Origin: Escherichia phage LorandFenyves_Bas91
Sequence record: PQ850614.1
Strand: one strand, 5' to 3'
Length of the DNA stretch: 64,000 nucleotides
Shown: positions 43,341 through 43,904 of the stretch, piece after piece
How the letters are laid out: every line of letters begins with the position of its first letter
Numbering within the stretch: position 1 is the first letter of the stretch
Position numbers and translations under genes: made by a program
Notes under the pieces: model-generated
Database searches by the model: none
Told to the model about the DNA's origin: nothing
Seen by the model: only the letters and a program-made list of their open reading frames with translations

Positions 43341-43904
43341 TTAGTAAGACACATCACCACTTGAATGGGACATGTTGCTCTTGACGAAGTAGCAATACTT
43401 GCCAAGACCTTCATTAATTTCTTGAAGCATACTCTGATCGACAGGGTAAGTGGCTAAATCGCCATCAAACTCATCCATCTTCTCAATAATACACATCAAG
43501 GTCATGCACATATCAGAGAGCATACCGTCCATGTCTAGATCAGCATTACCCTCTGAGAACCAAGCATGAGAGAGGTAGTTAGCTGCTGTAGCATCCACTT
43601 TAACACAGTGATAACGCATACGTTCAGCAATACGATCTCCTACTTGTCGTGCGTAATTTTCCAACTCATCAAACATACCATGAACACCCTGAAATCCTGC
43701 ACCAGAGACATTCCAGTGGTAGTTTTTAGCTTTGATATGCAAGAGTTCCATATTAGCTTGTAAGCAGCTCAGGATGTGTTCTAGGCTGTTTCCGCTAATC
43801 ATACCCTGCATCGTTTCAAGGCGAGAGATTGAAAGCTCTGACCGATCTAACATATTATAGTCGGCACGACCAATATCAGGTAAATCAAAGACATTCTTAT
43901 GCAT
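43341..43904 (-). CDS. Dps-like ferritin-fold protein
   Basis: KAKNYHWNVSGAGFQGVHGMFDE...AERMRY and C-terminal FVKSNMSH parallel E. coli Dps AHWNMRGANFIAVHEM...FIESNIE; start placed at ATG 43904 just after the upstream stop. Confidence 0.7.
   Translation of the reverse strand: MHKNVFDLPDIGRADYNMLDRSELSISRLETMQGMISGNSLEHILSCLQANMELLHIKAKNYHWNVSGAGFQGVHGMFDELENYARQVGDRIAERMRYHCVKVDATAANYLSHAWFSEGNADLDMDGMLSDMCMTLMCIIEKMDEFDGDLATYPVDQSMLQEINEGLGKYCYFVKSNMSHSSGDVSY

Follow-up and report, generated by a model that had tools for sequence, protein, structure and literature searches.

The closest described counterparts of the locus presented here are found in the C3 podophages. In phiEco32, the GenBank label that places the product of phi32_67 in the Dps family dates from 2008 (EU330206). 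In SU10, CDS67 (DPS domain), CDS65 (thioredoxin), and CDS68 were listed among the few middle genes common to the five C3 phages known at that time; CDS25 to CDS68 form the middle class of this phage and CDS69 onward the early class, and mass spectrometry (MS) detected both the CDS67 product (35.8% coverage, 6 peptides) and the gp68 protein (PMC4281155). The Privateer paper found Dps in CsCl-purified virions and mentioned the Kuravirus homologues (PMC7881722). Dps genes are also described in Lactobacillus plantarum myophages (PMC6669764) and in “Gratiaviridae” plus 36 other gut phage genomes (PMC8008677); in both cases, the authors read them as protection against oxidative stress and iron. As for transcription, promoters served by the phage sigma factor gp36 follow the consensus tAATGTAtA, with a start site 6–8 bp downstream (PMC8948821). 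One of them, the phiEco32 promoter P68, has been transcribed in vitro and visualized by cryo-EM in an open complex; the phage protein gp79 activates it threefold in vitro and shuts off sigma70- and sigmaS-dependent transcription (PMC12276001).

The identification of Dps in these phages is, thus, already known, and the novelty implied by a preliminary description of the present locus does not stand, as phi32_67 was already a “member of the Dps family” in EU330206 and the protein is discussed in both PMC4281155 and PMC7881722. In the searchable literature, we found no work on the function of a Dps from any phage. The question is why virulent podophages with an elongated head keep a ferroxidase-competent mini-ferritin at the start of a middle transcription unit, and it applies equally to the Dps-carrying phages of Lactobacillus, of the gut, and of cyanobacteria.

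We, thus, analyzed a stretch of 64,000 nucleotides (hereafter, the window) from Escherichia phage LorandFenyves_Bas91 (PQ850614.1), a phiEco32-like Kuravirus (Gordonclarkvirinae) with an elongated head; the 4 kb around its dps gene are 98% identical to vB_EcoP-CHD5UKE1. What we add to the existing knowledge is the organization of dps in a P68–gp68–dps–hairpin unit, the conservation of the gp68–dps pair in Kuravirus and Grimontviridae, and the acidic, non-basic nature of the N-terminal extension of the protein.

Identification of the dps Gene

The dps ORF lies on the minus strand at positions 43341..43904, from an ATG at 43904-43902 to a TAA at 43343-43341, as read from the ORF list and its translation. 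A GGAG sequence is found 10 nt 5' of the ATG. The ORF finder also offered a longer version starting at a TTG at 43952, which we did not keep, as no annotated homologue uses this initiation codon. The product is 187 aa long, with a computed mass of 21.2 kDa, a pI of 4.77, and a net charge of −14.

PF00210 (Ferritin) is the sole Pfam family found in this product; its score is 30.4 bits (gathering cut-off 24.5; E 4.4e-7), over residues 55–108 only. The match to PHROG 3636 (“DNA binding protein”, Dps-like) is far more extensive, as it aligns residues 35–180 with positions 2–149 of the 149 of the profile (E 3.8e-55). When PDB sequences were searched with phmmer, all 36 matches at E ≤ 0.01 were Dps, Dps-like, or mini-ferritin proteins, the best one being Dlp-2 of B. 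anthracis (E 2.6e-9). Judged by these matches, the ORF codes for a genuine Dps-family mini-ferritin. A profile search among 1.8 billion cluster representatives returned 3441 Dps-family representatives at E ≤ 1e-3; a cut-off of E ≤ 1e-30 left just 7 of them. The NCBIfam models for bacterial proteins are matched far under their cut-offs, with 34.8 bits for the Dps equivalog NF006975 (cut-off 114) and 32.6 bits for DpsA (cut-off 170); because of these low scores, we consider that the phage Dps is a diverged member of the superfamily and no equivalog of the bacterial Dps.

One match of the cluster search deserves a separate comment. P0032 is a sequence of 1156 aa made of about 20 near-identical repeats of 58 aa, which reached an E value of 4.5e-26 against the Dps profile via a GNWSVQGLQF... 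stretch; almost certainly, this is no real Dps but the translation of a tandem repeat.

Fold and Conservation of the Ferroxidase Residues

The preliminary description had pointed to a Dps signature with an HWN motif and to a C-terminal helix resembling that of E. coli Dps, and it had proposed a Ferritin/Dps HMM search and a ligand alignment as checks. Both were run and agree with it: PF00210 is above its cut-off, as seen above, and the ligands are intact. The signature reads Y-H63-W-N-V-S-G-A-G-F-Q-G-V-H75-G-M-F-D79-E, followed by G-D90-R-I-A-E94, and residues H63, W64, H75, D79, D90, and E94 align to H51, W52, H63, D67, D78, and E82 of E. coli K-12 Dps (reference sequence taken from NC_000913). 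The C-terminal helix (LGKYCYFVKSN) aligns likewise with its E. coli counterpart (LDKFLWFIESN). All six residues are invariant across 15 relatives, down to 48% identity, and in a 14-sequence set reaching 19% identity, the metal ligands H63, H75, D90, and E94, as well as W64, are still invariant.

An AlphaFold2 model built on an alignment of 15 relatives (mean pLDDT 80, above 85 across residues 41–177) shows helices A (41–65), B (72–98), C (125–150), and D (154–177), with a short BC helix (107–112); the fifth, C-terminal helix of maxi-ferritins (E helix) is absent, and the predicted topology is the four-helix bundle of Dps. The protein can, thus, be divided into an acidic N-terminal extension (residues 1–40), the Dps four-helix bundle with its BC helix (41–177), and a short tail (178–187). 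In a Foldseek comparison of the model with the PDB, all of the best 50 matches belonged to the Dps family or were Dps-like, and most were dodecamers. Target TM scores were mostly 0.7–0.9 and up to 0.92 over about 135–170 columns, and rmsd values started at 1.1 Å and were mostly 1–4 Å, a few reaching about 8 Å.

The dN/dS ratio of dps is about 0.05 against SU7, where dS is saturated, and 0.09 against phiEco32, values from which we consider that the gene is under strong purifying selection. Its N-terminal 42 codons are under weaker constraint (dN/dS about 0.18).

Distribution, Origin, and Database Labels

A tblastn search found dps in 138 of 50,697 phage records. Most of these (97) are Kuravirus-like; the others are Grimontviridae (Salmonella phage 7-11, Proteus phage Privateer, Cronobacter phage GAP52, and Aeromonas phages) and a few Streptomyces and Synechococcus phages. 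The earlier remark that Dps homologues are uncommon in phages is, thus, true overall, but it does not apply to this lineage, in which dps is a universal core gene, present across Kuravirus, Suseptimavirus, and the genera of Grimontviridae. In IMG/VR, at least 476 stretches code for a Dps relative. No close copy of the gene was found in 185,579 representative bacterial genomes (one per species), and the identity to the Dps of the host E. coli is 19%; on these two observations, we rejected the idea that the gene was recently acquired from the host or from a prophage. Judged by sequence comparison, dps is an old, virus-restricted branch of the family.

One has to keep in mind that the names given to this gene in databases can be misleading. 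Many Kuravirus records (e.g., NC_070989.1, NC_070984.1, and NC_070993.1) call it “integrase”, while others use “ferric iron binding protein” or “DNA-binding protein”. We found PF00210 only and no recombinase domain in the product, so “integrase” is an annotation error that spreads from record to record. “DNA-binding protein” is the second misleading label in circulation, for reasons given below.

The P68–gp68–dps–Hairpin Unit

The element AATGTATA is found on the minus strand at 44266..44273, 40 nt 5' of the gp68 start codon; it fits the gp36 consensus tAATGTAtA, and the window contains six exact copies of it in all. The P68 region of the window is exactly that of phiEco32. In the comparison with SU7, about 40 consecutive nt are unchanged despite the saturation of synonymous sites in the flanking genes. 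On this conservation, we consider that the element at 44266-44273 is the middle promoter P68 described in phiEco32. A sigma70-like TTTACT-16-TATGAT arrangement at 44309-44282 was given no weight, as the scan that proposed it returned fewer matches in the real sequence than in shuffled ones.

P68 is followed by the first cistron of its unit, a gp68-like gene of 109 aa (43897..44226, minus strand; phrog_10984), whose stop codon shares bases with the dps ATG (ATGCATAA). Because of this overlap of start and stop codons, gp68 and dps are probably translationally coupled. In Privateer, BUCT695, and GAP52, homologues of gp68 with 31–34% identity lie directly 5' of dps, and the gp68 stop codon usually overlaps the dps start in both Kuravirus and Grimontviridae; in phage 7-11, the gp68 homologue is a few genes away from dps, near thioredoxin. 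The invariant residues of the gp68 family (43897-44226 in the window; homologue loci L002, 3639-3923; L004, 3690-3959; L003, 2397-2663) include an HRD..L.R motif near the N-terminus and a P.N..VI..Q motif near the C-terminus, with a predicted beta-rich core. Searches of gp68 against Pfam, against the PDB with profiles, and with PADLOC gave no match, and its AlphaFold2 model (14 close homologues) had a pLDDT of 46.9, too low to be used. We considered gp68 as a general partner of Dps proteins and abandoned this idea, since we found the gene only in the loci of C3 podophages and never close to dps in the 78 further loci examined in IMG/VR.

Downstream, a GC-rich hairpin of 11 pairs (43306..43334, minus strand) starts 7 nt 3' of the dps stop codon and precedes gp66. 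Its dG is −15.9 kcal/mol; its stem is kept in SU7, where the loop is replaced. An intrinsic terminator after dps is unconvincing, with a fold z score of only −1.5 and a weak U-tract, and termination is to be taken as a possibility: the hairpin could be a partial terminator or attenuator of the middle transcript, or a stem stabilizing the 3' end of the mRNA. The gene dps is, thus, the second cistron of a P68–gp68–dps–hairpin unit located at the promoter-proximal end of the middle cluster.

Neighboring Genes and the Supply of Nucleotides

The neighbors cited in the preliminary description are all real: thioredoxin (42817..43092, minus strand; PF00085, E 2.1e-13), downstream of dps; the flavin-dependent thymidylate synthase ThyX (42145..42801, minus strand; PF02511, E 1.4e-43); and dCTP deaminase (44915-45448). 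They had been described, together with dps, as a nucleotide-metabolism block; the genes are there, but they span two temporal classes, as dCTP deaminase is an early gene, whereas dps, thioredoxin, and thyX belong to the middle class. Between dps and thioredoxin lies gp66 (43101-43280, minus strand; phrog_9296), the counterpart of phiEco32 gp66, coding for a predicted membrane protein of 59 aa. PADLOC gave no match for Dps, gp68, or gp66, and we, thus, dropped a role of these proteins in defense or anti-defense.

Such a neighborhood raises the possibility that the cage stores and releases iron for ribonucleotide reduction, or protects this reaction, as part of a dNTP-supply module with thioredoxin. 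The clients would be the phage NrdD/NrdG in the relatives and the di-iron NrdAB of the host in Kuravirus. Gene order argues for it: (thioredoxin)–gp68–dps–NrdD is found in GAP52, Privateer, and BUCT695, with thioredoxin adjoining gp68–dps in GAP52 and Privateer, while Kuravirus and 7-11 have dps–thioredoxin–ThyX or ThyX–dps, with ThyX directly 5' of dps in 7-11. The order (thioredoxin)–gp68–dps–(NrdD or ThyX) is, thus, conserved across families in which the proteins share 31–44% identity. The preliminary description had likewise suggested that the protein supplies iron to redox enzymes. This proposal is weakened by the absence of a client, as the SU10 annotation shows neither a ribonucleotide reductase nor another iron enzyme for Kuravirus; as for the neighbors, ThyX relies on flavin and thioredoxin contains no metal, so that both work without iron. 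Moreover, the viral dps loci that we examined outside the C3 podophages are not adjacent to thioredoxin, ThyX, NrdD, or Dcd. We, thus, rejected a general linkage of viral dps to these genes, and since it is absent outside the C3 lineage, the linkage may be an inherited gene order with no functional necessity. To our knowledge, directed delivery of iron from a Dps to an enzyme has not been demonstrated. We find this role in ribonucleotide reduction doubtful.

Three further features of this region are worth mentioning. Three tandem paralogous small genes (69, 69, and 65 aa) occupy 44299-44914 (minus strand), between P68 and dCTP deaminase; each of them matches phrog_4939 (E about 1e-28) and has a C-terminus of the form ...KV(I/H/Y)Y, and SU10 has a fourth small ORF at this place. 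At 41067-41396 (minus strand), a gene codes for a 109-aa stand-alone Ia domain, the NAD+-binding domain of NAD-dependent DNA ligase (PF22745, E 2.6e-34); its product is named “DNA ligase” in phiEco32 and SU10, although it is far too short for one, and we speculate that it may modulate the host LigA or NAD+ metabolism. Finally, a PhoH-like gene lies less than 4 kb from dps in four unrelated viral contigs of IMG/VR (L043, L044, L079, and L082); PhoH belongs to the same middle cluster as dps in the window (40161-40898) and adjoins thioredoxin in 7-11.

The Acidic N-Terminal Extension and DNA Binding

Dps proteins contact DNA through basic tails, and those without such tails, e.g., the Dps of Listeria and Agrobacterium, are not known to bind DNA. 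The Kuravirus Dps has about 40 extra residues at its N-terminus, with a weakly predicted helix at 18–37 and a motif S-I-x-R-L-E-x-M in which R28 is invariant. The Lys/Arg-rich tail that characterizes the DNA-binding subclass is absent: the N-terminal 42 residues have a net charge of −3 and the C-terminal tail of −1, for −14 over the whole protein. Basic N-terminal tails are found elsewhere, in the Dps of Grimontviridae (+3 to +5) and of E. coli (+3).

These features bear directly on the idea that the protein would bind and condense phage or host DNA and shield it from nucleases and radicals, its iron chemistry being secondary. This idea has in its favor the name “DNA-binding protein” carried by PHROG 3636 and by most GenBank records, as well as the basic tails of the Grimontviridae homologues and of E. 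coli Dps; however, the name comes from homology alone, and the tails of the Kuravirus protein, whose pI is 4.77, are not basic. Selection also acts on all ferroxidase ligands, a constraint that a protein serving as a DNA coat alone would not require. As the protein is strongly acidic and without a basic tail, DNA binding is doubtful; the Kuravirus Dps is probably no DNA-coating protein, and we consider a coating role unlikely. The claim of the preliminary description that the protein compacts DNA loses ground for the same reasons, and the label “DNA-binding protein” is not supported by the sequence in Kuravirus.

Possible Association with the Virion

Another reading of the protein is that Dps cages, or subunits targeted by their extension, reside in or on the elongated capsid, where they would protect the packaged genome or enter the next cell. 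Dps is one of about 10 proteins detected by MS in CsCl-purified virions of Privateer (PMC7881722), and it is also present in PEG-concentrated SU10 (PMC4281155). However, the SU10 sample did not go through a CsCl step, and DNA polymerase, PhoH, and the sigma factor were present in it as well; the Dps of Privateer, the phage for which the purified virions were analyzed, does not have the Kuravirus extension; one may add that dense, iron-loaded cages could co-band with phage particles. The gene itself is a middle gene located outside the structural module. We searched the motif of the extension in the other ORFs of the window and found it in none of them, and we, thus, dropped the idea of a capsid-targeting peptide shared between Dps and other proteins of the window.

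Sequences from uncultured phages argue in the other direction. In IMG/VR, contig IMGVR_UViG_3300025889_005021 (L068) carries at 55-1626 an ORF of 523 aa in which an N-terminal Dps domain (PF00210, E 2.9e-17) is fused to a Lys/Glu-rich tail of about 350 aa, and BFVD holds several entries of 290–763 aa named “Prohead protease” or “Dps” that match the AlphaFold2 model (A0A6J7XDU5, A0A6J7WPK9, A0A6J7WIS1, and A0A6J5N5R9; E 1e-5 to 1e-3), so that Dps-fold domains do occur in long proteins called “prohead protease”. These long Dps-domain proteins of uncultured phages may be capsid-associated Dps fusions. For the Kuravirus protein, we regard association with the virion as very unlikely.

A more specific scenario can be imagined, in which a conserved acidic helical extension of 40 residues replaced the ancestral basic, DNA-contacting tail in Kuravirus, and in which the cage and gp68 would have a job other than that of bacterial Dps, either recruitment to the virion or procapsid, hinted at by the Privateer virion proteome and by the prohead-protease-like fusions, or docking onto a specific host or phage protein. 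We see this scenario as quite improbable.

Iron and Peroxide Detoxification as the Favored Role

The reading that we favor is that the protein is a functional mini-ferritin that would detoxify Fe2+ and H2O2 during phage DNA synthesis, after the shut-off of host transcription; we give it a probability of about 0.6. The subunits would assemble into a hollow dodecamer like those of bacterial Dps. Between two-fold-related subunits, the cage would oxidize Fe2+, preferably with H2O2 (or with O2), and the resulting Fe3+ would be stored inside, so that both Fenton reactants would be removed during the synthesis of phage DNA and dNTPs. Protection from oxidative damage, which the preliminary description had also put forward, is plausible in this respect.

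The position of dps in the transcription program fits with such a role. The middle cluster is transcribed by the host RNA polymerase equipped with the phage sigma factor gp36 and the activator gp79, and dps, close to its start, would be expressed from P68 early in the middle phase. The SU10 proteome shows that the protein is produced in substantial amounts in infected cells. In E. coli, dps induction follows two routes, OxyR/sigma70 and IHF/sigmaS. Because gp79 blocks both of them, a phage dps under a gp36 promoter would replace the host stress function thereby disabled. It should be noted that the E. coli cell has enough Dps from its own gene when infection begins, so that the benefit of a second, phage-encoded copy is not self-evident. 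phiEco32 and SU10 would be a tractable system in which to ask whether phage DNA replication, once the host is shut off, is limited by how well iron and peroxide are kept in check.

Comparison with Known Systems

Distant counterparts among phages are those of Lactobacillus and gut phages. They are ferritin-superfamily genes of lytic phages too, but they belong to unrelated lineages with distant sequences: the Lactobacillus phage Dps are 17–24% identical to the Kuravirus Dps in structure-based Foldseek alignments, and the gp68 partner is absent from the Lactobacillus and gut phage loci.

We then compared the protein with bacterial Dps dodecamers, namely, Dlp-2 of B. anthracis (1JIG), Dps2 of M. 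smegmatis (2Z90/4M35), MrgA of B. subtilis (2CHP), and E. coli Dps (6B0D). It resembles them by its four-helix bundle with a BC helix, by the HWN...H...D / D...E ligands, and by the conserved Trp; the AlphaFold2 monomer model superposes on these structures with target TM scores of 0.8–0.9 and an rmsd of 1.1–2 Å. It differs from them by an identity of only 19–27%, by its extra acidic extension of 40 residues, and by the absence of a Lys/Arg-rich tail. Its net charge of −14 is to be compared with −4 for E. coli Dps, and its content of Met (15) and Cys (5) is unusually high.

The Grimontviridae proteins (Privateer gp068, 7-11, GAP52, and BUCT695) are orthologues of the Kuravirus Dps, with 31–44% identity and the same ligands, and their loci have the same gp68-like partner and the same nucleotide-metabolism neighborhood. 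They are shorter (146–154 aa), with a short basic N-terminal tail in place of the acidic extension, and their gene often adjoins NrdD, which Kuravirus does not have.

Finally, the gp67 proteins of phiEco32 and SU10 are the closest of all. The phiEco32 protein (ABY52868.1, phi32_67, EU330206; “DNA-binding protein, member of the Dps family”) is 96.8% identical to the one described here, and the SU10 protein is 100% identical. In both phages, the gene occupies the same place, between gp68 and gp66/thioredoxin and downstream of P68, with no substantial difference from the locus of the window.
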